Shown piece after piece: positions 12,245-64,000 of a stretch of DNA of 64,000 nucleotides. The DNA comes from a virus: positions 6,919-70,918 of the IMG/VR virus record IMGVR_UViG_3300010370_005113; one strand, given 5' to 3'. The translations under genes were made by a program, and so were the position numbers. The notes under the pieces are model-generated. The model searched no databases. It was not told the DNA's origin and worked only from the letters and a program-made list of their open reading frames with translations. The number at the start of each line of letters is the position of its first letter. The first letter of the stretch is position 1.

Positions 12245-12259
12245 TTAACGGTAAACTAA

Positions 12260-12267
12260 TATAAATA
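12260..12267 (+). promoter_or_regulatory. T4-type late promoter TATAAATA inside a start-codon-sequestering hairpin
   Basis: TAACGGTAA (12246-12254) pairs with TTACCGTTA (12282-12290, which includes the A of ATG). Confidence 0.75.
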
Positions 12268-12289
12268 GTATTGGTTATTGATTACCGTT

Positions 12290-12748
12290 ATGTCTAAGTC
12301 CAGAAATTATACAGATGAAGAATTTGCTTTAGCTGTAGAAGAAAGTGGTAGTATTCGCCAAGTTCTACAAAAACTAAATTTAAGAGAAGCAGGTGGAAAC
12401 TATCAATGTGCTAAAGAAAGAATTAAAAAACTTAATTTAAGTACTAATCACTTTTATGGGCAAGCGTGGAACAAAGGTAAAAAATTACCTAAAAGACAAC
12501 CTATTGAAACTTATCTTGTTGAAGATAGATTAGTTCAATCAAACAACTTAAAAAAGCGTTTGATTAATGAAGGTATAAAACAACATAAGTGCGAATGTTG
12601 CGGTATTACAGAATGGAATGGTAAAATTGCTCCAATAGAACTTGATCACATTGATGGAAATCGCTACAATAATCGGTTAGAAAATCTTCGTCTTTTATGC
12701 CCCAACTGTCACGCACAAACTCCTACCTATCGAGGTAGAAATAAATAA
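12290..12748 (+). CDS. HNH homing endonuclease
   Basis: CECC...ELDHIDGNRYNNRLENLRLLCPNCH HNH motif; ATG at 12290 is in frame with the track TTG at 12278. Confidence 0.9.
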   Translation: MSKSRNYTDEEFALAVEESGSIRQVLQKLNLREAGGNYQCAKERIKKLNLSTNHFYGQAWNKGKKLPKRQPIETYLVEDRLVQSNNLKKRLINEGIKQHKCECCGITEWNGKIAPIELDHIDGNRYNNRLENLRLLCPNCHAQTPTYRGRNK

Positions 12749-12771: not shown

Positions 12772-13041
12772 ATGAAGTACAGAATTGATGCCGCATACGT
12801 TTGGTACAATAAAGGAACTCAAATTGTTCTGATGTACTTTATAAATCAAGTTCCATTTACTTTTGATGAACTTCCAGATTATGCAACGCAAGATTTGGAA
12901 TTAATTCATTTAGCAGATAACGAAAGACGTTTTGAACCAGAGGATTTATACAGGTCATCGTTCTATTTGATTGATGAGCAATGTCATCCTCTTATGTTTG
13001 ATGTTGAACTGGAAAATCCAGAAATGTTACCTGTTGATTAA
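12772..13041 (+). CDS. Hypothetical protein
   Basis: 89-aa ORF with AGGA RBS-like motif upstream. Confidence 0.7.
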   Translation: MKYRIDAAYVWYNKGTQIVLMYFINQVPFTFDELPDYATQDLELIHLADNERRFEPEDLYRSSFYLIDEQCHPLMFDVELENPEMLPVD

Positions 13042-13044
13042 CCT

Positions 13045-13115
13045 GCCCTATAAGCATTAAATTGATGCGCGACCTTTGTAACGTCGAGAACTCGGGGAGG
13101 TACCGGGATGGGGCT
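13045..13115 (+). tRNA. trnT: Atypical tRNA-Thr(TGT)
   Basis: Cloverleaf: GCCCTAT/ATGGGGC acceptor, GCAT/ATGC D-stem, CGAC/GTCG anticodon stem around TT-TGT-AA, CTCGG/CCGGG T-stem. T-loop is GGAGGTA rather than TTCRANY. Confidence 0.65.
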
Positions 13116-13118
13116 TAA

Positions 13119-13177
13119 CTAAATAATGATACCTGGATGTCTGCAAACTTCAGGAAGAGGGTGAAAATCCCTCTTTT
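13119..13177 (+). ncRNA. Putative late small RNA cassette, copy 1 (antisense to HNH leader)
   Basis: CTAAATA, 6 nt, CCTG-N15-CAGG, then terminator-like AAGAGGG/CCCTCTT-TT; 13133-13145 is complementary to 13194-13206. Confidence 0.55.
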
Positions 13178-13181
13178 ATTA

Positions 13182-13189
13182 TATAAATA
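13182..13189 (+). promoter_or_regulatory. T4-type late promoter TATAAATA for the second HNH gene
   Basis: Exact consensus 26 nt upstream of ATG 13216. Confidence 0.75.
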
Positions 13190-13215
13190 CCTATGCAGAC
13201 ATCTAGAGTAGAACT

Positions 13216-13827
13216 ATGCCTAACTGGACGGAAGAAGGTTTCCAGCGTATTGTTGATGCTGGAAAAAAGAGTGCATTACTATCTAAAGAACGGTCTAAAC
13301 AACTTCAGGTAGAATATTATAAAAATCCAAAGTTATGTTTAAATTGTTCAGAGATAATACCATATTGTAAAAAAAGAGAAAATAAATTTTGCAGTAGTTC
13401 TTGTTCTGCTACAGTTTCTAATGCTAAAAGAATAAAGAAAAAAATTTGTTTAGTCTGTGATAATGAAATCAAAAAAGGAGCATCAAAATATTGTTCAATA
13501 AAGTGTCAAAAAACATATCATTTTAATCAGAGGTTGATTGATTGGATAAATGGTGATGCTGTAACAAACTCAAGAAACTTTTTCAGAAGATATTTAACAG
13601 AGACGCAGGGATACAAATGCTCTTGCTGTCAAATTTCTGAATGGAATGGCAAATCAATTGTTTTAGAGATAGACCATATAGATGGAAATTCTGAAAATAA
13701 TAGACCAGAAAATTTAAGATTTATCTGTCCAAACTGCCATTCACAAACTGAAACATATAAAGCAAGAAATATAGGCAAAGGAAGACATTATAGAAGAGAA
13801 CGATATGCTGCTGGACAGAGTTACTAA
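13216..13827 (+). CDS. HNH homing endonuclease with N-terminal Cys-rich zinc-finger repeats
   Basis: CxxC/CSxxC repeats, then CSCC...LEIDHIDGNSENNRPENLRFICPNCH. Confidence 0.9.
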   Translation: MPNWTEEGFQRIVDAGKKSALLSKERSKQLQVEYYKNPKLCLNCSEIIPYCKKRENKFCSSSCSATVSNAKRIKKKICLVCDNEIKKGASKYCSIKCQKTYHFNQRLIDWINGDAVTNSRNFFRRYLTETQGYKCSCCQISEWNGKSIVLEIDHIDGNSENNRPENLRFICPNCHSQTETYKARNIGKGRHYRRERYAAGQSY

Positions 13828-13862
13828 ATTATGATAGGATACTAAAAGAGATAAAACTCCAA

Positions 13863-48722: not shown

Positions 48723-50309
48723 ATGTCTCAACAAAAGGCACAAATCATTTCACCAATTGATACATTTACTACTCCAGGTCTCAACGTAACTGGTGTAGTA
48801 ACTTCAACGTCTTTTGTTGGTTCTGCAACTGGAACTGCAACAGGTCTTGCAAGTACAACTCTTAATATCAGTGCTGGTATCGTAACTGCAACAACACTTT
48901 ATGGTTCTGGTGCAAGTTTAACTGGTGTTGCTCAAACTGCTTTTGTTGGTCAAAGTACAACTTCACAATCACCTACAACAACCATTAACTTATCATTAGG
49001 TAATGTAATTTATTTCACTCATAATACTGATACTACTGTTGCTTTTGCGAGTACTGATACAGTAGAGAAAGTCAAGTTTATTAGAATTAAAGACGCAACA
49101 ACAACTGCAAGAAATATTACATGGCCTACAAATGTTTATTGGAATAATGGAACTGCTCCAACGTTAATTAATAATCCAAGAACCACAGCAGCACAAACAT
49201 TCAATCTTACAACCAGAGATGGTGGAGTGACTTGGTATGCTTATCAGGAAGTGAATAGTAATCCACAGACATTGAGTTTGTTCTCATGGGGATATAATGG
49301 TTATGGACAACTAGGACAAAGTAATCTAACACAATATTCATCACCAGTTCAGATACAAGGAACTACATGGAGTTCTATAAGTAGTGGTCGAAGTCATTCA
49401 TTAGCAATCAAAACTGATGGAACTTTATGGGGATGGAGTCTCAATACTGGGGGACAACTAGGACAAAATAATATAACACTATATTCATCACCAGTACAAA
49501 TACCAGGAACCACATGGAGTTCTATAAGTTTATCAAAAAGTAATCAATGGAGCATGGCGACCAAAACTGATGGAACTTTATGGGTATGGGGACTAAATGG
49601 TTTTGGACAACTAGGACAAAATAACGTAACATATTATTCATCACCAGTACAAATACCAGGAACCACATGGAGTTCTATCAGTAGTGGTAACGTTCATTCA
49701 TTAGCAACCAAAACTGACGGTACTTTATGGTCATGGGGTTATAATGCTCAAGGACAACTAGGACAAAACAACAGAACACATCGTTCATCACCAGTACAAA
49801 TACCAGGAACCACATGGAGTTCTATCAATAGTAATAACTTTCATTCATTAGCAACCAAGACTGATGGAACATTATGGTCATGGGGTTATAATTTTTATGG
49901 ACAACTAGGACAAAATAATAGAACATATCGTTCATCACCGGTACAAATACCAGGAACTACATGGAGTTCTATAAGTGGTGGTAACGTTTATTCATTAGCA
50001 TCTAAAACTGACGGAACTTTATGGTCATGGGGTTTTAATAGTGATGGAAGATTAGGACAAAATAATACAACACAATATTCATCACCAGCACAAATACCAG
50101 GAACCACATGGAGTTCTATCAGTGGTGGTTCTAATTTTTCATTAGCAATGAAAACTGATAATACCTTATGGGCATGGGGGCAAAATACTAATGGAAGATT
50201 AGGACAAAATAGTACAACATATTATTCATCACCAGTTCAAATTCCAGGAACTACATGGAATTCTATTAGCGGTGGTGAACAACATTCATTAGCACTCAAA
50301 CAAGAATAA
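48723..50309 (+). CDS. Fibre-anchored RCC1/BLIP-II protein (7 blades)
   Basis: Same architecture as 47104-48705; CATAAATA at 48701-48708. Confidence 0.9.
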   Translation: MSQQKAQIISPIDTFTTPGLNVTGVVTSTSFVGSATGTATGLASTTLNISAGIVTATTLYGSGASLTGVAQTAFVGQSTTSQSPTTTINLSLGNVIYFTHNTDTTVAFASTDTVEKVKFIRIKDATTTARNITWPTNVYWNNGTAPTLINNPRTTAAQTFNLTTRDGGVTWYAYQEVNSNPQTLSLFSWGYNGYGQLGQSNLTQYSSPVQIQGTTWSSISSGRSHSLAIKTDGTLWGWSLNTGGQLGQNNITLYSSPVQIPGTTWSSISLSKSNQWSMATKTDGTLWVWGLNGFGQLGQNNVTYYSSPVQIPGTTWSSISSGNVHSLATKTDGTLWSWGYNAQGQLGQNNRTHRSSPVQIPGTTWSSINSNNFHSLATKTDGTLWSWGYNFYGQLGQNNRTYRSSPVQIPGTTWSSISGGNVYSLASKTDGTLWSWGFNSDGRLGQNNTTQYSSPAQIPGTTWSSISGGSNFSLAMKTDNTLWAWGQNTNGRLGQNSTTYYSSPVQIPGTTWNSISGGEQHSLALKQE

Positions 50310-50321
50310 ATACTTCTAAAA

Positions 50322-51902
50322 ATGTCCCAAACGAAAGCACAATTAGTACAACCAGTAGGAATATTCACAGCACCAGGAGTGAATGTCTCTGGAGTATTAA
50401 CTGCTTCATCGTTCTCTGGAAATCTTACAGGTACAGTCACAGGACTTACAACAACTGCAAATATTACTGTTGGAGTACTGACTGCTACAAGTTTCTTTGG
50501 TTCTGGTGCAAATCTTACTGGTATTCCTGCTGGTGCTTATGTTGGTCAAAGTACAACATCACAATCACCAACAACCACAATTGATTTGAGTTTAGGTAAT
50601 GTAATTTACTTTACACATAATACGAATACTACTGTTGCTTTTGCAAACACAAGCACAACACAGGAAGTTCGTTTTATTCGTACAAAGGACGATACTGGAA
50701 CAATAAGAACAATTACATGGCCCTCAAGTATTATTTGGGATGGTGGAAGTGCTCCTGTTTTAAGAAATAATGCAAAGAGTACTGATGCTCAAATCTTTAA
50801 TCTAACGACTAGAGATACTGGAGTAACTTGGTATGGTTATCAAGAGTTTGTTTATAGTCCTGGTGATGTTTTGTTCTCGTGGGGAGTTGGTACTTCGGGA
50901 CAACTAGGACAAAACACTGCAGTATCCACATCATCACCAGTACAAATACCTGGTACTACATGGAGTTCTATAAGTGGTGCTATTTTTCATTCATTAGCAA
51001 CCAAAACTGATGGAACTTTATGGTCATGGGGTGATAATACTTATGGGCAAGTAGGTCAAAATAATAGAACATATTATTCATCACCAGTACAAATACCAGG
51101 AAATACATGGAGTTTAATATCTTCTGTGCAAACTCATTCATTAGCAAGAAAAACTGATGGAACTTTATGGTCATGGGGATATAATTCTTATGGAGCACTA
51201 GGACAAAATAATACAACACAATATTCATCACCAGTACAAATACCAGGAACCACCTGGAGTTCTATCAGTGGTGGTAATAGTTTTTCATTATCAACCAAAA
51301 CTGATGGAACTTTATGGTCATGGGGTACTGGTGCTAGTGGAAGATTGGGACAAAATGATACAACATACTATTCATCACCAGTACAAATACCAGGAACCAC
51401 CTGGAGTTCTATAAGTGCTAGTGGTAATAGTTTTTCATTAGCAACCAAAACTGATGGAACTCTATGGTCATGGGGTCAAAATGGTAATGGAGCATTAGGA
51501 CAAAATAATAGAACATATTATTCATCACCAGTACAAATACCAGGAACTACATGGAGTTCTATAAGTAGTGGTGGTGGTACTCATTCATTAGCAACCAAGA
51601 CTGATGGAACTTTATGGACATGGGGTAATAATAGTGCTGGACAACTAGCACAAAATAATAGAACACAATATTCATCACCAGTACAAATACCAGGAACCAC
51701 ATGGAGTTCTGTAAGTGGTGGTGGTCAACATTCATTATCAACCAAAACTGATGGAACTTTATGGTCATGGGGTACTGGTGCTAGTGGAAGATTGGGACAA
51801 AATGATACAACACAATATTCATCACCAGTACAAATACCAGGAACCACATGGAGTTCTATCAGTGGTGGTACTCAGTACTCATCAGCACTCAGATCATCCT
51901 GA
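50322..51902 (+). CDS. Fibre-anchored RCC1/BLIP-II protein (7 blades)
   Basis: Same architecture; AATAAATA at 50305-50312. Confidence 0.9.
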   Translation: MSQTKAQLVQPVGIFTAPGVNVSGVLTASSFSGNLTGTVTGLTTTANITVGVLTATSFFGSGANLTGIPAGAYVGQSTTSQSPTTTIDLSLGNVIYFTHNTNTTVAFANTSTTQEVRFIRTKDDTGTIRTITWPSSIIWDGGSAPVLRNNAKSTDAQIFNLTTRDTGVTWYGYQEFVYSPGDVLFSWGVGTSGQLGQNTAVSTSSPVQIPGTTWSSISGAIFHSLATKTDGTLWSWGDNTYGQVGQNNRTYYSSPVQIPGNTWSLISSVQTHSLARKTDGTLWSWGYNSYGALGQNNTTQYSSPVQIPGTTWSSISGGNSFSLSTKTDGTLWSWGTGASGRLGQNDTTYYSSPVQIPGTTWSSISASGNSFSLATKTDGTLWSWGQNGNGALGQNNRTYYSSPVQIPGTTWSSISSGGGTHSLATKTDGTLWTWGNNSAGQLAQNNRTQYSSPVQIPGTTWSSVSGGGQHSLSTKTDGTLWSWGTGASGRLGQNDTTQYSSPVQIPGTTWSSISGGTQYSSALRSS

Positions 51903-51929
51903 TATAAATACTCAAAAAGTATACAGATA

Positions 51930-54191
51930 ATGGCTCTCAATTTTCCAGACAGTCCATCACTTAATCAAATCTATACAGATAATACTTCTGGGTTCTCTTA
52001 TCAATGGAACGGAACTGTATGGATTAGTTATTCTGCAGCATCATCAAATAACATCAAAACTCTTGATGATATCAGTGCTTCATTCAACAGTTCAACAACC
52101 ATTTTTTCATTAACATCTGGTGGTACTGCAGTTACACCAGCATCTCCACAACAACTGATTATCAGCGTTGGTGGTGTAATGCAAAGTCCAAACACTGACT
52201 ATTCAGTGTCTGGTTCTAATATTATCTTCACAACTGCACCACAATCTGGATTAACATTCTTCGGAACTCTGATTGGACCTGCAGTTCCTGTTGGTGTTTC
52301 AACGGTTGGTGAAGTTTATCGTCGTCAATCTTATGCAGTCACTGGTGTACAAACATCATTCTCATTCCCTGCTGGTTATACTGTTGGATATCTGGAAGTT
52401 TATCGTAATGGTGTAAAACTGATTTCTGGTGATGACTTTACTGCGACTGATGGAAGTTCATTTAGTTTAACAACACCAGCACAGAATGGTGATGATGTAG
52501 AAGCAACAGGATACATCACATCAGCAATTGCAGTTACGAATGGAAATCTTACTGACCTTTTAGTTAATAATAATGCTAGAGTTCTTGGTATCACAACTCT
52601 TGGTATTAATGTTGGTGCAGGACAAACCGCATTAACTGTCCAAGGAAACGCAAGAGTTACTGGTATTCTGACTGTTGGTTCTTCTAGTTTAACTTTAAAT
52701 GGAGACACCAATCAAATTAATGGAGTTACAATCAGTGCTGGTGTTGTAACTGCTACAAGTTTTTCTGGTAGCGGTTCAGGATTAACTGGTATTGTAACCA
52801 GTGTAAATCCTGTTGGTCAATCAACAACATCTCAAGCAGGAACTACTACAATTAATCTAAGTTTAGGTAGTGTAATCTACTTTACTCATAATACTGATAC
52901 CACTGTTGCTTTTGCAAATACCGCAACAACTCAAGAAATTACATTTATTAGAACAAAAGATAATACAACAACTGCTAGAGCAATTACATGGCCATCTAAC
53001 ATTTATTGGGATAATATTGATGCACCTACACTACAAAACGAAGGAGCAACAAGAAATGCACAAACTTTTAGTTTCACAACTCGTGATGGTGGAGTAAGTT
53101 GGGTTGGTTATGAAGTTCAAAGAAATGCTGGTATCGGTACTTATATGTATGTTTGGGGGAATGGGGCATCAGCACGATTAGGACAAAATAACACCACCAC
53201 ATCTTTCAATTTACCAAAGTTATTTGAAAACTCAACTATATGGTCCAATATATCATTTCTAACGACTACAAATGCATCATTAGCAACTAAAACTGACGGA
53301 ACTTTATGGGCATGGGGAGCTAATACTTCTGGAGTATTGGGACAAAATACTACAACAAGTTTTTCATCACCAATACAAATACCGGGAACCACATGGAGTT
53401 CTATAAGTGGTGGTACAACTCATTCATTAGCAACCAAGACTGATGGAACTTTATGGTCATGGGGTACTAATAGTGGTGGACAACTAGGACAAAATACTAC
53501 AACAAGTTTTTCATCACCAATACAAATACCGGGAACCACATGGAGTTCTATAGATGGCGGCAATGCTTTTTCATTAGCAACCAAAACTGATGGAACTTTA
53601 TGGTCATGGGGTACTAATACTAATGGACAACTAGGTCAAAATGCTATAACATCACAGTCATCACCAGTACAAATACCAGGGACCACATGGAGTTCTATAT
53701 CTATTGGTTATAATCATTCATTAGCAACCAAGACTGATGGAACTTTATGGACATGGGGTTTTGGTAATAGCGGAAGATTAGGACAAAGTGCTACAACATC
53801 ACAATCATCACCAGTACAAATACCAGGAACAACGTGGAGTTCTATAAGTAATATCGGACCATTAGCAATTAAAACTGATGGAACACTATGGTCATGGGGT
53901 TATAATGCTCAAGGACAATTAGCACAAAACAATAGAACACAATATTCATCACCAGTACAAATACCAGGATCCACATGGAGTTCTGTAAGTAGTACTGTTG
54001 GTAGTGTAACTGGTACTAACGTTTCAGTATTAGCAAAAAAAACTGATGGAACCTTATGGGCATGGGGAAATAATGGTAATGGAATATTAGGACAAGGTAA
54101 TTCAACATACTATTCATCACCAGTTCAAATACCAGGAACCACATGGACTAGACCAATATCTGGTAGTGCAGCATTCAAAACTATCACATAA
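51930..54191 (+). CDS. Multi-domain fibre protein with C-terminal RCC1/BLIP-II propeller (first blade divergent)
   Basis: MALNFP...YQWNGTVW fibre N-terminus, LDDIS..FN domain, VIYFTHN domain, seven repeats; TATAAATA at 51903-51910. Confidence 0.88.
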   Translation: MALNFPDSPSLNQIYTDNTSGFSYQWNGTVWISYSAASSNNIKTLDDISASFNSSTTIFSLTSGGTAVTPASPQQLIISVGGVMQSPNTDYSVSGSNIIFTTAPQSGLTFFGTLIGPAVPVGVSTVGEVYRRQSYAVTGVQTSFSFPAGYTVGYLEVYRNGVKLISGDDFTATDGSSFSLTTPAQNGDDVEATGYITSAIAVTNGNLTDLLVNNNARVLGITTLGINVGAGQTALTVQGNARVTGILTVGSSSLTLNGDTNQINGVTISAGVVTATSFSGSGSGLTGIVTSVNPVGQSTTSQAGTTTINLSLGSVIYFTHNTDTTVAFANTATTQEITFIRTKDNTTTARAITWPSNIYWDNIDAPTLQNEGATRNAQTFSFTTRDGGVSWVGYEVQRNAGIGTYMYVWGNGASARLGQNNTTTSFNLPKLFENSTIWSNISFLTTTNASLATKTDGTLWAWGANTSGVLGQNTTTSFSSPIQIPGTTWSSISGGTTHSLATKTDGTLWSWGTNSGGQLGQNTTTSFSSPIQIPGTTWSSIDGGNAFSLATKTDGTLWSWGTNTNGQLGQNAITSQSSPVQIPGTTWSSISIGYNHSLATKTDGTLWTWGFGNSGRLGQSATTSQSSPVQIPGTTWSSISNIGPLAIKTDGTLWSWGYNAQGQLAQNNRTQYSSPVQIPGSTWSSVSSTVGSVTGTNVSVLAKKTDGTLWAWGNNGNGILGQGNSTYYSSPVQIPGTTWTRPISGSAAFKTIT

Positions 54192-63404: not shown

Positions 63405-63509
63405 ATGCGGTTTTCTTCTACGGACAGATTACTTTTCGTCACATCGTTCATCTGGTTCACCCATTGGGGTGTTAAAGTGACTGAAGTTGCAATCAACGCA
63501 CTCCTCTGA
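63405..63509 (+). CDS. Putative 34-aa hydrophobic peptide (not in ORF track)
   Basis: MRFSSTDRLLFVTSFIWFTHWGVKVTEVAINALL; TGATG coupling to the next gene; TATAAT at 63376-63381. Confidence 0.5.
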   Translation: MRFSSTDRLLFVTSFIWFTHWGVKVTEVAINALL

Positions 63510-63937
63510 TGCTATACCTTGATATTACTGGTTATGGAGCACGTAGAAGGCGCTGTAGCAGTGTTGTAGAGTGGTTTCTAACCAAGTACTTACCCAGACA
63601 TCATATCACCGTAGAAGTCCATCACAGAGGTCTTCGTAGGGAGCAATCTTATGGTTATTGTTCTGTTGCTGGTGATATCTATCGTCCCCGTGAGTTTCTG
63701 ATTGAAATTGATCCAAAACTTGATTTGGAACTTTATACAAAAACTTTAATTCACGAGTGCGTACATATTCGGCAATGGGTTAAAGGTCTTCTTAAAGAAC
63801 GCAGAGGTAAAATGTATTACAAAGATAAAACTTTTGAAGACTTGGATTACTGGGAGTATCCACACGAAGTAGAAGCACATTATCTTGAAGAAATTCTTTA
63901 CGAAGATTACCTCACAGAGACTGGACAAACATCATAA
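63509..63937 (+). CDS. HExxH zincin-like metallopeptidase domain protein
   Basis: TLIHECVHIRQW and YPHEVEAH motifs. Confidence 0.75.
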   Translation: MLYLDITGYGARRRRCSSVVEWFLTKYLPRHHITVEVHHRGLRREQSYGYCSVAGDIYRPREFLIEIDPKLDLELYTKTLIHECVHIRQWVKGLLKERRGKMYYKDKTFEDLDYWEYPHEVEAHYLEEILYEDYLTETGQTS

Positions 63938-63996
63938 ATATTGATGCCTGACTGACTGCAATCTTCAGGTTGGAGAGTAGAAATACTCTCCTTCTT
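63933..63996 (+). ncRNA. Putative late small RNA cassette, copy 2
   Basis: CATAAATA, 6 nt, CCTG-N15-CAGG, then GGAGAGTA-GAAA-TACTCTCC-TTCTTT terminator; same spacing as 13119-13177. Confidence 0.55.
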
Positions 63997-64000
63997 TATA

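Follow-up and report, generated by a model that had tools for sequence, protein, structure and literature searches.

Masking hairpins with a late promoter inside them are described in PMC2988022 for the T-even-type homing-endonuclease genes I-TevI, I-TevII, I-TevIII, segB and Aeh1 mobE. In that account long transcripts are masked and late ones lack the 5′ arm, an arrangement shared by the cassette reported here; a terminator appears there as an additional layer for mobE, and seg43(25) shows a similar departure from SD/AUG sequestration. Dassa et al. 2009 (PMC2677866) described free-standing endonuclease genes of "fractured genes" at cyanophage-like loci in metagenomes of marine and freshwater origin. 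Of 16 endonuclease 5′ UTRs, 15 had a hairpin before the start codon; ten of these hairpins contained TATAAATA, and they had two conserved, mutually complementary motifs. The sections of that paper devoted to the hairpins read them solely as cis translational elements and say nothing of a promoter box upstream, a terminator within the element, a small RNA or diverse arms. Further relatives are the PeSL ("promoter-early stem loop") terminator/early-promoter cassettes of T4-like phages (PMC2839356, PMC4122927) and CfrI of cyanophage S-PM2, an antisense RNA that links psbA and the F-CphI homing-endonuclease gene (Millard et al. 2010, cited in PMC10690425).

The window (the whole 64,000-nucleotide stretch of viral DNA analysed here) holds two copies of a cassette that extends the T4/Aeh1 device of a late promoter inside a masking hairpin (Table 1). 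As in the T-even masks, two complementary arms with TATAAATA (here called P2) between them stand before a nuclease gene, and P2 transcripts, at their predicted start, lack the 5′ arm. Set against the masks as PMC2988022 describes them, the cassette differs in that a second late-promoter box (P1) lies directly before the 5′ arm, this arm stands in a covarying hairpin of its own (hairpin 1), and a terminator separates the arms; its 3′ arm opens the late leader at the very 5′ terminus and ends 6–13 nt short of the AUG, whereas T-even arms cover SD and AUG, and its arms are hypervariable within a conserved, portable frame common to GIY-YIG, HNH and TnpB-like genes. The hairpins of Dassa et al. are probably the same or a sister element, a comparison made by description and not by sequence. 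PeSLs, as those papers present them, are likewise short, conserved, repeated terminator-plus-promoter modules between T4-type genes and are tied to modular gene shuffling, but their promoters are early (sigma-70-type) whereas both cassette boxes are of late type (N[A/C]TAAATA and TATAAATA), and they have no complementary arm-leader pair and no tie to nuclease genes. As a non-coding RNA of a cyanophage with a tie to a homing-endonuclease gene, CfrI resembles the predicted small RNA of the cassette, but it is described as a long true antisense transcript overlapping the gene. Our literature search found no earlier description of the two-promoter/small-RNA form, and the words promoter and terminator are absent from the S-SRM01 genome paper.

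Table 1. Cassette features in the window (positions counted from its first nucleotide; all on the + strand)
Feature	Position	Strand	Basis or remark
Cassette copy 1	13118–13218	+	every listed element confirmed in sequence
P1, late-promoter-like box ACTAAATA, copy 1 (CTAAATA at 13119–13125)	13118–13125	+	sequence; promoter activity predicted
Predicted small RNA, copy 1, 51 nt, from predicted start (6th nt after P1) to U-rich tail	13131–13181	+	folding
Hairpin 1, copy 1, CCTG...CAGG (CCUGGA...UUCAGG), anti-leader arm in and beside its loop	13132–13154	+	sequence, folding
5′ (anti-leader) arm CTGGATGTCTGCA, copy 1	13133–13145	+	complementary to 13194–13206
Intrinsic-terminator-like hairpin (13155–13175) and U-rich tail (13176–13181), copy 1	13155–13181	+	folding; termination predicted
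P2, consensus late promoter TATAAATA, copy 1 (predicted start near 13195)	13182–13189	+	sequence
3′ arm TGCAGACATCTAG, first nt of the P2 leader, copy 1	13194–13206	+	sequence, family covariation
Purine-rich stretch AGAGTAGAA, presumed ribosome-binding region, first two bases inside the helix	13205–13213	+	alignment conservation; ribosome-binding role inferred
HNH homing-endonuclease gene, 203 aa, ATG at 13216	13216–13827	+	Pfam, tblastn
Cassette copy 2	63933–64000	+	cut by record end
P1 of copy 2, CATAAATA	63933–63940	+	sequence
Hairpin 1 of copy 2, a 23-nt hairpin (CCTG at 63947, 6 nt after TAAATA)	63946–63970	+	sequence, folding
Anti-leader arm CTGACTGACTGCA, copy 2	63948–63960	+	sequence
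Terminator hairpin of copy 2 (63972–63991), U-rich tail and first four bases (TATA) of P2	63972–64000	+	sequence, folding, covariance model

A preliminary description of this DNA had listed in copy 1 the CTAAATA box, the CCTG...CAGG element, a terminator hairpin and a second late promoter, all of which are in place, as is the complementarity it had noted between the arm and the HNH leader (13 pairs, one of them G-U). Its observation that the architecture recurs near 63933 also holds: the spacing of copy 2 is that of copy 1 as far as the TATA of P2, where the record ends (position 64000), so the leader of copy 2 is unreadable in the window. An arm identical to that of copy 2 precedes the leader TGCAGTCAGTTAG in other contigs (L004, L006, L011, L012). 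The TAA at 63935–63937 within P1 of copy 2 is the stop codon of an upstream ORF (63509–63937). A search for the frame CCTGN5CTGCAANCTTCAGG gives two occurrences in the window and none in 100 shuffles, and a covariance model built from 24 other cassettes has exactly two matches in the 64 kb, with 78.9 bits and, for the cut copy 2 (match clipped at its 3′ end), 34.2 bits. Rfam 15 at gathering thresholds finds only a tRNA-Leu in the whole window; in E-value mode the top matches in 13050–13300 are pemK at 19 bits (cut-off 34.8) and then tRNA at 16.3 bits, and 13000–13135 gives nothing, in agreement with the earlier view that the element belongs to no named RNA family. A tRNA-like nature of the cassette was rejected, since 16.3 bits (E 0.73) is a chance score. 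A neighbouring HNH gene in the window is preceded by a simple mask of the T4 type.

The family to which both copies belong is large, with members in uncultivated contigs of T4-like cyanophages and six in the isolate S-SRM01, whose host in culture is Synechococcus sp. KCZYC6. Throughout, the order P1, hairpin 1, terminator, P2, leader, homing-endonuclease gene is fixed and, among the matches listed, up to nine cassettes lie in a single genome of 136 kb. The size of the family is a lower bound, and counts from pattern scans refer to the matches listed after removal of chance matches (9 of 23 loci in one scan, 10 of 92 in a P1-free scan and 27 of 117 in a viral-contig scan); also left out as chance were L097, L100, L101, L113 and L152 and the "non-canonical" rows L310, L313, L320 and L407. 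Two of these loci, L100 and L152, appear to be modules that have decayed or been orphaned, with hairpin 1 present and the matching leader missing. In cellular genomes none of the at least 121 loci that match the loose cassette pattern is a cassette, and of 125 matches listed there 8 have at least 9 nt of complementarity, again with no cassette among them, whereas 90 of the 117 listed matches to the same pattern in viral contigs have complementarity of at least 9 nt. Blastn of copy 1 against 50,697 phage records returned chance matches only, and blastn with another cassette type against phage records returned only S-SRM01 and a short S-N03 match; the conserved blocks of the cassette are too short for BLAST. 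The covariance-model search covered 13 isolate genomes: at E <0.1 there was no match in DSL-LC03, SynMITS9220M01, S-CREM1, Syn9, P-SSM2, S-CRM01, S-CAM3 or RN05-S, and the best scores in DSL-LC02 (E 0.40, by eye no cassette), S-PM2 (E 0.94, none convincing) and MA01 (E 0.29) were no better.

The association with nucleases noted at first for this one gene extends across the family. The window ORF matches Pfam HNH_3 (E 4.4e-06) and HNH (E 0.0011), and in tblastn it matches annotated HNH/homing endonucleases of many phages. Pfam identifies GIY-YIG, NUMOD3, HNH, I-HmuI-like, PD-(D/E)XK or, in one ORF, IS605 OrfB/TnpB domains in 37 of 66 family ORFs (the Pfam-named ORFs being 143 to >225 aa long), and 21 of the remaining 29 match homing/HNH endonuclease PHROGs, so that 58 of 66 have nuclease-family matches.

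Throughout the family the first 10–15 nt after P2 have their complement in the loop of hairpin 1, and at least 74 different arm sequences each match their own leader. A pattern that left loop and leader free gave 106 listed distinct cassettes, of which 96 have a complementary run of at least 9 nt with their own leader (mode 14), while non-own pairs have a mode of 5–6. RNAalifold applied to 24 sequences predicted a 13-bp helix with compensatory changes at 10 of the 13 pairs, and the large family alignment has them at 12 of 13. Among 64 distinct rows, in an alignment that had been fitted to the pairing model, 98.9% of cells are paired, against 69.2% in shuffles and at most 48.9% in slid controls, and covariation is 0.803 against 0.214 (reached by none of 500 shuffles). 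Co-variation of loop and leader in homologs had been named beforehand as a check on the proposal of a conserved frame with a variable specificity segment, and the result is decisive in its favour. Judged from these sequence comparisons, the arm-leader pairing is under selection.

The helix contains frequent G-U pairs (in 29 of 64 rows at one pair and 13 of 64 at another), which on the opposite strand would be A-C mismatches; they indicate that the RNA is read on the strand of the gene. This strand bias bears on whether the arms could be a DNA-level element, an inverted repeat for protein binding, cruciform formation or recombination, with RNA pairing incidental. A promoter flanked by inverted repeats would suit such an element, and template switching at quasi-palindromes, reportedly described by Ripley in 1982, could copy changes between arms. 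The cassette is moreover the left end of an inserted unit: of 23 sequencing runs listed two are RNA, and their contigs, which carry no information on expression, match the first HNH gene and 13045–13117, break off at 13117 and leave 13121–13860 uncovered. However, only the gene strand tolerates the frequent G-U positions, hairpin 1 and the terminator have the form of RNA structures, the inserted unit does not end at the arms, and the conserved frame reaches past them; we consider a DNA-level role very improbable.

Arm specificities within genomes are largely orthogonal, in that across seven genomes own duplexes have −21.8 kcal/mol and cross pairs −8.55 kcal/mol, and pairings of 10 nt occur in only 8 of 140 cross pairs. 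That arms are always unique within a genome is ruled out by two cassettes (L444 and L448) with one shared arm in one genome. Four paralogous cassettes of a single genome have diverged in their arms and these still pair; in this comparison of four sequences only, the variable columns number 17 of 26 in the arms, 21 of 65 at third codon positions (p 0.005) and 4 of 48 in the conserved frame. We put forward tentatively, with rather less than even confidence, that the cassettes together make up a naturally occurring library of small RNA/leader lock-and-key pairs, orthogonal and programmable (at least 74 specificities), in which each nuclease gene, be it GIY-YIG, HNH or TnpB-like, would have its own late trans silencer and arms would be driven to diversify against cross-talk, a phage analogue of type I antitoxins for DNA nucleases.

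Hairpin 1 covaries as well. Its stem exists as CCTG/CAGG, CCTT/AAGG, CCTA/TAGG, TCTGT/ACAGA, GCTTG/CAAGC, GCTTA/TAAGC, CTCT/AGAG and TGCT/AGCA, and in a structure-blind MAFFT alignment 88.3% of its cells are paired against 84.5% in shuffles, with 18 double-change cells against 5.8 (neither value is reached by any of 500 shuffles). The hairpin begins at the predicted +1, and its covarying 3′ strand has no partner in the arm-leader helix. The two pairings share the bases CTG and are mutually exclusive, an arrangement that could suggest a riboswitch-like or attenuator cis element with signal-dependent termination, the alternative offered in the preliminary description. But the 3′ arm lies beyond the terminator, is transcribed after it and so cannot influence termination; the "sensor" part is hypervariable, Rfam finds no riboswitch in the window, and nothing resembles a ligand pocket. 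Such an element is hardly credible here.

P1 is also conserved. A pattern that did not require it recovered 82 listed true cassettes, 81 of which keep TAAATA, mostly 6 nt before the hairpin and with variable flanks. In 178 listed distinct cassettes the P1 box is NATAAATA in 113 and NCTAAATA in 62; NATAAATA is a cyanophage late-promoter motif (PMC2984593), and the late motif of Aeh1 is CTAAATA with its first base at −12 (PMC1524935). P1 is TATAAATA in only 32 of the 178, usually lacking the first T of the T4 consensus, and P2 is TATAAATA in 173, a count partly imposed by two of the search patterns. At equal distance from the box, the −1/+1 context is T-purine in 169 of these 178 listed cassettes for P2 and in 154 for P1. 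The promoter-to-terminator unit proposed earlier folds, as a prediction, into two hairpins (−16.6 kcal/mol, z −2.60 in copy 1; a predicted 55-nt RNA of −19.5 kcal/mol, z −3.58 in copy 2), and in 194 of 199 listed distinct members the two-hairpin fold starts within 4 nt of the predicted +1. Across the family the predicted RNA has a median length of 57 nt and the terminator hairpin a median of 10 bp and −13.8 kcal/mol, with a T-rich 3′ side. The retention of P1, its P2-like start context, the position of hairpin 1 at +1 and the covariation of its 3′ strand together suggest a discrete RNA, and P1 and the terminator probably release a late small RNA of ~50–60 nt that acts in trans.

From this anatomy we infer promoter activity, termination, a small RNA and the sign of its effect, and arrive at a best explanation to which we give an even chance of being right: a portable anti-leader module whose late trans-acting small RNA silences the nuclease mRNA, together with cis masking on read-through. 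In T4-like cyanophages the module would move along with genes for homing endonucleases and for a few other mobile nucleases. Late nuclease mRNA would start ~6 nt after P2, its first 10–15 nt being the exact complement of the segment displayed in or next to the loop of hairpin 1. With P1 6 nt upstream of hairpin 1 and the intrinsic terminator behind it, terminated P1 transcripts would be two-hairpin late RNAs of ~50–60 nt that would base-pair in trans with the P2 mRNA at its 5′ end. Such a duplex, reaching the first bases of the purine-rich stretch, would keep ribosomes from loading, might also set off decay, and would hold nuclease synthesis to a low level. Transcripts from P1 or from genes upstream that run through the terminator would contain both arms and mask themselves in cis, as for T4 I-TevI and Aeh1 mobE. 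Certain features weigh against the small RNA: P1 may have little or no activity, hairpin 1 could be part of a cis-only mask in which it shields the arm from the sequence around the landing site, and repression is plausible but not obvious, since the helix stops short of the AUG and merely touches the purine-rich stretch.

The complementarity also fits the known cis device of T4-type homing-endonuclease genes, which was absent from the preliminary description. Were the cassette only such a mask, the 5′ arm would act just in RNAs entering from upstream (early or middle read-through), the terminator would be a second barrier, P2 transcripts would be translated, P1 would be inactive or irrelevant and hairpin 1 would insulate the arm. 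P2 lies between the arms exactly as in the "hairpin-regulated homing endonucleases" of PMC2988022, and the hairpins reported by Dassa et al. 2009 (PMC2677866) contain TATAAATA and complementary motifs. In the read-through RNA (13131–13260) the 13-bp helix is the minimum-energy pairing (−39.5 kcal/mol, z −3.89), while the P2 transcript has no significant structure (z −0.33); cassettes of S-SRM01 sit amid small ORFs on the same strand, and the simple mask beside the neighbouring HNH gene points the same way. A mask alone leaves unexplained the near-invariant P1 with its fixed spacing and P2-like start context, the strong terminator between the arms, and the fast, compensated divergence of arms among paralogs, and the 3′ arm is anchored to the P2 start (beginning 4–5 nt past the box in 162 of 178 listed cassettes), not to the AUG. 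We regard a cis-only mask as a strong rival, though as less likely than not.

The sign of the effect could also be the reverse, with the small RNA raising expression by forming a 5′-end duplex that shields the nuclease mRNA from 5′-end-dependent RNase E/J. The complementarity does start at the predicted first nt of the P2 transcript, and this reading draws support from the duplex formation that reportedly protects phage mRNA from RNase E in infected cyanobacteria (a result attributed to Stazic et al. 2011). Yet the end of the duplex, 6–13 nt from the AUG and overlapping the purine-rich stretch, would normally hinder 30S binding, and the homing-endonuclease controls covered in PMC2988022 are all repressive. 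A protective role seems unlikely to us.

The preferred reading, of a repressive small RNA with cis masking on read-through, also invites comparison with toxin–antitoxin systems, to which the element was likened at first. Type I antitoxin RNAs have their own promoter and terminator, lie beside their target and have 10–20 nt of complementarity to the 5′ leader of the mRNA for a harmful protein, and in some systems (e.g., IstR-1/tisB and OrzO/zorO) the adjacent antisense RNA does not overlap the target. The cassette has a promoter box, a terminator and a covarying pairing for its predicted RNA, but this RNA would come from the strand of its target and from immediately upstream of it, the two promoters both belong to the late class, and nothing implies an addiction phenotype. 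Type I toxins are small, usually hydrophobic, membrane peptides, whereas the target here is a site-specific DNA nuclease of 150–250 aa; the likeness stands as an analogy only. As a whole the earlier interpretation is partly supported.

T4-like phages carry homing endonucleases as their main selfish elements, and how a phage tolerates several copies is only partly understood. A single compact and mobile unit of RNA control, with a free "address" segment, is common to widely differing nuclease genes of freshwater cyanomyoviruses and of at least one isolate from the coast; its role is probably to keep nuclease dose low. Even if it is a cis mask only, the T4 paradigm is extended to cyanophages with unusually clear covariation, and the covariance model can find such leaders and the true starts of often mis-annotated nuclease genes. 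If the small RNA is real, this would be, within the literature searched, the first trans-acting phage small RNA family dedicated to taming the phage's own mobile nucleases, and would offer a ready-made set of short orthogonal riboregulators.

The window comes from an IMG/VR viral contig that shows weak DNA similarity, and only to Synechococcus myoviruses (Kyanoviridae); its base 64000 is the end of the record. The parts of its complete cassette (copy 1, 13118–13218) are listed in the table below, where P1 and P2 are the first and second late-promoter boxes and hairpin 1 is the stem-loop between P1 and the terminator. Its 5' arm (13133–13145), which lies in and beside the loop of hairpin 1, is complementary to the 3' arm at the start of the P2 leader (13194–13206) at 13 positions, including one G-U. 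The recurrence reported in the preliminary description is real: copy 2 (63933–64000) has the spacing of copy 1 and a 5-nt loop core ACTGA instead of GATGT, its second promoter box being interrupted by the record end, and the frame common to both copies occurs twice in the window and in none of 100 shuffles. The TAA within the first box of copy 2 is the stop codon of ORF 63509–63937, which lies directly upstream and has an HExxH-like motif (HECVH).

Components of the complete cassette (copy 1) in the window
Feature	Position	Strand	Basis
First box P1, ACTAAATA, then a 6-nt spacer	from 13118	+	sequence
Hairpin 1, CCTGGA...TTCAGG	13132–13154	+	sequence
Terminator-like GC-rich hairpin with U-rich tail	13155–13181	+	sequence
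Second box P2, TATAAATA	13182–13189	+	sequence
Leader 3' arm, TGCAGACATCTAG, 4 nt after P2	13194–13206	+	sequence
Stretch AGAGTAGAA between 3' arm and ATG		+	sequence
HNH endonuclease ORF, 203 aa	ATG at 13216	+	Pfam

Five pattern scans of IMG/VR contigs, with a different module part unconstrained in each, gave a collection of at least 178 distinct cassettes with at least 74 different arm sequences. The exact-frame scan found 23 loci (14 full cassettes and 9 GC-rich chance matches), and the scan with the leader side only found the complete upstream part present at 20 of 20 loci. With loop and leader left free and both boxes and a CCTG/CRGG stem demanded, at least 125 loci were found; among the 106 distinct cassettes listed, the loop is complementary to its own leader without gaps over 9 nt or more in 96 (mode 14) and over 8 nt in 5 more, while non-own loop-leader combinations (n = 10,744) have a mode of 5–6 nt and reach 9 nt in 4.8%. 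The 5 with runs of 7 nt or less are not full cassettes: three are plain chance matches and two are orphan-like modules. RNAalifold predicts a 13-bp long-range helix for 24 geometrically uniform members, with compensatory changes at 10 of the 13 pairs and a single broken cell. A covariance model (R1) built on that alignment was used to align 75 matches (64 distinct rows) from the scan without hairpin constraint, and in these rows, which lean towards the structure because they are fitted to the model, 98.9% of 820 arm-leader cells are standard pairs (69.2% when shuffled), the covariation score is 0.803 (0.214 when shuffled; reached by none of 500 shuffles), and at most 48.9% are paired when partners are slid by 1–3 columns. 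The comparison of own with non-own runs and the 24-member RNAalifold result are free of this model-fit bias. As a negative control, the loosest pattern was run on 185,579 cellular genomes and gave at least 125 matches, 8 of them with complementarity of at least 9 nt and none of those listed with cassette features; the corresponding figure in viral contigs is 90 of the 117 matches listed. The co-variation of loop and leader in homologs, proposed as a check in the preliminary description, is therefore present, and the view that the cassette is an RNA-pairing control is well supported. G-U pairs are frequent at two helix positions (29/64 and 13/64 rows), so the structure is read on the nuclease-gene strand.

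Among the 178 cassettes listed, P2 is TATAAATA in 173 (two of the search patterns demanded it) and P1 is NATAAATA in 113 and NCTAAATA in 62. NATAAATA is reported as the late-promoter motif of cyanomyoviruses (PMC2984593), and that of Aeromonas phage Aeh1 is CTAAATA, starting at −12 (PMC1524935). A pattern that demanded only TTCAGG, P2 and leader gave at least 92 distinct matches. TAAATA lies 5–7 nt (exactly 6 in 74) before CCTG in 76 of the 92 listed, and the other 16 are 10 chance matches, 5 with a box before a variant stem and one with a mutated box (TATAATA); the P1 box is therefore present in 81 of the 82 true cassettes listed, in which the 6-nt spacer and the bases upstream of P1 are freely variable. 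The Aeh1 spacing rule places the predicted transcription start of each box at the 6th nt after it, and this nucleotide is a purine after T at 154 P1 and 169 P2 sites of the 178 cassettes listed.

For 194 of 199 distinct members, the RNA predicted to run from the P1 start to just before P2 (median 57 nt) folds into a pair of hairpins; hairpin 1 begins no more than 4 nt from +1 and occurs with 49 different stem variants. Its stem changes on both sides among the matches listed from the stem-free scan and whole-genome searches (CCTG/CAGG, CCTT/AAGG, CCTA/TAGG, TCTGT/ACAGA, GCTTG/CAAGC, GCTTA/TAAGC, CTCT/AGAG and TGCT/AGCA). On a structure-blind MAFFT alignment of 105 sequences, mostly CC-stems and with some rows out of register, hairpin 1 is 88.3% paired (84.5% shuffled), with a covariation of 0.154 (0.103) and 18 double-change cells (5.8), each value reached by none of 500 shuffles; this signal is modest. 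Hairpin 1 counts as a structure of its own; it and the long helix have the bases CTG in common and so form as alternatives. Across the family the median terminator hairpin has 10 bp and −13.8 kcal/mol, and its 3' side is T-rich. For the two window copies the predicted RNAs, 51 and 55 nt long, each form a pair of hairpins (z −2.60 and −3.58), the read-through RNA forms the 13-bp helix enclosing the terminator (z −3.89), and no significant structure is seen for the P2 transcript (z −0.33).

Downstream of the cassettes, 91 distinct ORFs of 60 aa or more were collected; Pfam was run on 66 and gave nuclease-type matches in 37 (GIY-YIG, NUMOD3, HNH, I-HmuI-like, PD-(D/E)XK and one IS605 OrfB/TnpB), several of them below curated cut-offs; among the remaining 29, 21 match homing or HNH endonuclease PHROGs and 4 match nothing. 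One arm type precedes different nuclease genes, and one gene type follows different arms. Contigs of the DNA sequencing run X1 and the RNA-library run X20 diverge from the window after 13117, one base before P1, and DNA depth falls from ~288 to ~14 across the 13117/13118 junction. This places the cassette at the left end of an insertion, a unit (cassette plus HNH gene) absent at 13117/13118 from many related genomes in the X1 and X20 samples. Between the small ORF 12772–13041 and the cassette lies a 73-nt stretch (13045–13117) in which a 7-bp acceptor-like stem, a UGU (Thr) anticodon-like loop and an odd T-loop can be made out by eye; neither ARAGORN nor Rfam calls a tRNA in it, and in relatives a tRNA-Thr follows the homologue of that ORF. 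It may be a degenerate tRNA adjoining the endonuclease insertion site. Several other cassettes, L005, L009 and L016, immediately follow the 3' end of a tRNA. At two loci a P1 box and a canonical hairpin 1 are present and a complementary leader downstream is missing, one locus retaining its terminator (L100) and the other having a degenerate one (L152); these are possibly orphan or decayed modules after loss of the nuclease gene.

The cultured freshwater phage S-SRM01 (MW015081.1) has six cassettes by R1, and the ORFs behind them are annotated as 'HNH restriction endonuclease', 'nuclease associated modular domain 3 protein', 'hypothetical protein' and 'translation initiation factor 2'. The last (L432; 62515–63273) starts MVNPNRFYTYAYLRED like GIY-YIG-type cassette genes, so its name is probably wrong and it is very likely a mis-annotated GIY-YIG-like gene; the NUMOD3 protein (51291–51992) is annotated to start at 51291, upstream of the cassette-implied start. 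One divergent cassette (E 0.029, inspected by eye) was found in the coastal phage S-N03 (MT162466.1), at L590 100–250 (~50094–50226), before an annotated homing endonuclease and with the clamp-loader gene on the other side. It reads CTAAATA, GCCT...AGGC as a hairpin carrying the arm TAATCTGTGGTTA, a further hairpin, a terminator, TATAAATA and the leader TAACCACAGATTA, and its arm-leader match is a perfect 13 bp. Eleven further cyanophage isolates, Syn9, S-PM2 and P-SSM2 among them, gave no cassette with R1. Ten long IMG/VR records hold 5, 2, 9, 1, 5, 0, 0, 1, 1 and 4 copies; the two with none had entered via chance pattern matches.

Known biology explains the cassette in part. In long transcripts of T4 I-TevI, I-TevII, I-TevIII and segB and of Aeh1 mobE the ribosome site is hidden by a hairpin, and a late promoter inside that hairpin yields late transcripts without the 5' arm (PMC2988022). 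Dassa et al. (2009) described hairpins in 15 of 16 endonuclease leaders at cyanophage-like metagenomic loci, with TATAAATA and two mutually complementary motifs, and read them as T4-type masks (PMC2677866). Such a simple mask, and nothing more, precedes the window's other HNH gene, whose start is probably ATG 12290: AACGGTAA (12247–12254) pairs with TTACCGTT (12282–12289) directly before the ATG, with TATAAATA (12261–12268) between them. This single sequence, without covariation, folds (12247–12292) at −14.2 kcal/mol (z −2.36; 7 of 200 shuffles fold as well), and it has no first box, terminator or R1 match. PeSL cassettes of T4-like phages, unlike those described here, are reported to combine a terminator and an early promoter without arms (PMC4122927). 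No Rfam family matches the cassette, in agreement with the preliminary description, which had not recognized it as a named family; the likeness to a type I antitoxin drawn there holds as a functional analogy and fails as membership, since the cassette's gene encodes a nuclease and not a small peptide. A full-text literature search found no description of the two-promoter, small-RNA form, and the S-SRM01 genome paper makes no mention of promoters or terminators.

A mask of the T4/Aeh1 type acting in cis only, with the arms pairing within one long transcript and late P2 transcripts lacking the 5' arm, would account for the position of P2 between the arms, a logic that the cassette shares with those masks, and we regard it as a serious alternative. 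However, it has no need for four features that the cassette adds to them: a conserved P1 box at a fixed distance, a hairpin that begins where P1 transcripts are predicted to start, a terminator separating the arms, and a 3' arm anchored at P2 instead of over the AUG (it begins 4–5 nt after P2 in 162 of the 178 cassettes listed and ends 6–13 nt upstream of the AUG). The reading we favor, with middling confidence, is a dual-use arm: set free late in infection in a predicted ~50–60-nt RNA, it would silence the P2 mRNA in trans, and within read-through RNAs it would act as a mask in cis. The small share of probability that is left falls to an sRNA that activates, a role at the DNA level or an attenuator.

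Arm-leader pairs within seven genomes are largely orthogonal: own duplexes have a median of −21.8 kcal/mol against −8.55 for cross pairs, and 8 of 140 cross pairs, including the true duplicate L444/L448, reach 10 nt. Genes like IS605 OrfB/TnpB stand at L105, L443, L447, L450 and L453 (G001), with the Pfam match on L105; a TnpB-type nuclease under a homing-endonuclease-type cassette, each with its own arm, was unexpected. G001, a complete 243-kb record with direct terminal repeats, has four paralogous TnpB-like genes whose cassettes share an identical frame, in which 4 of 48 columns vary in the frame against 17 of 26 in the arms, and each arm has compensating changes in its leader. In these genes third codon positions vary at 21 of 65 columns (p 0.005), and the rate of change in the arms is about that of the unconstrained terminator region (21/39). 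The four features superfluous to a cis mask, the orthogonal pairs and the compensated paralog arms together favor the dual-use arm, and compensated arm change at such a rate, in four sequences, suggests selection for new specificities or copying between arms.
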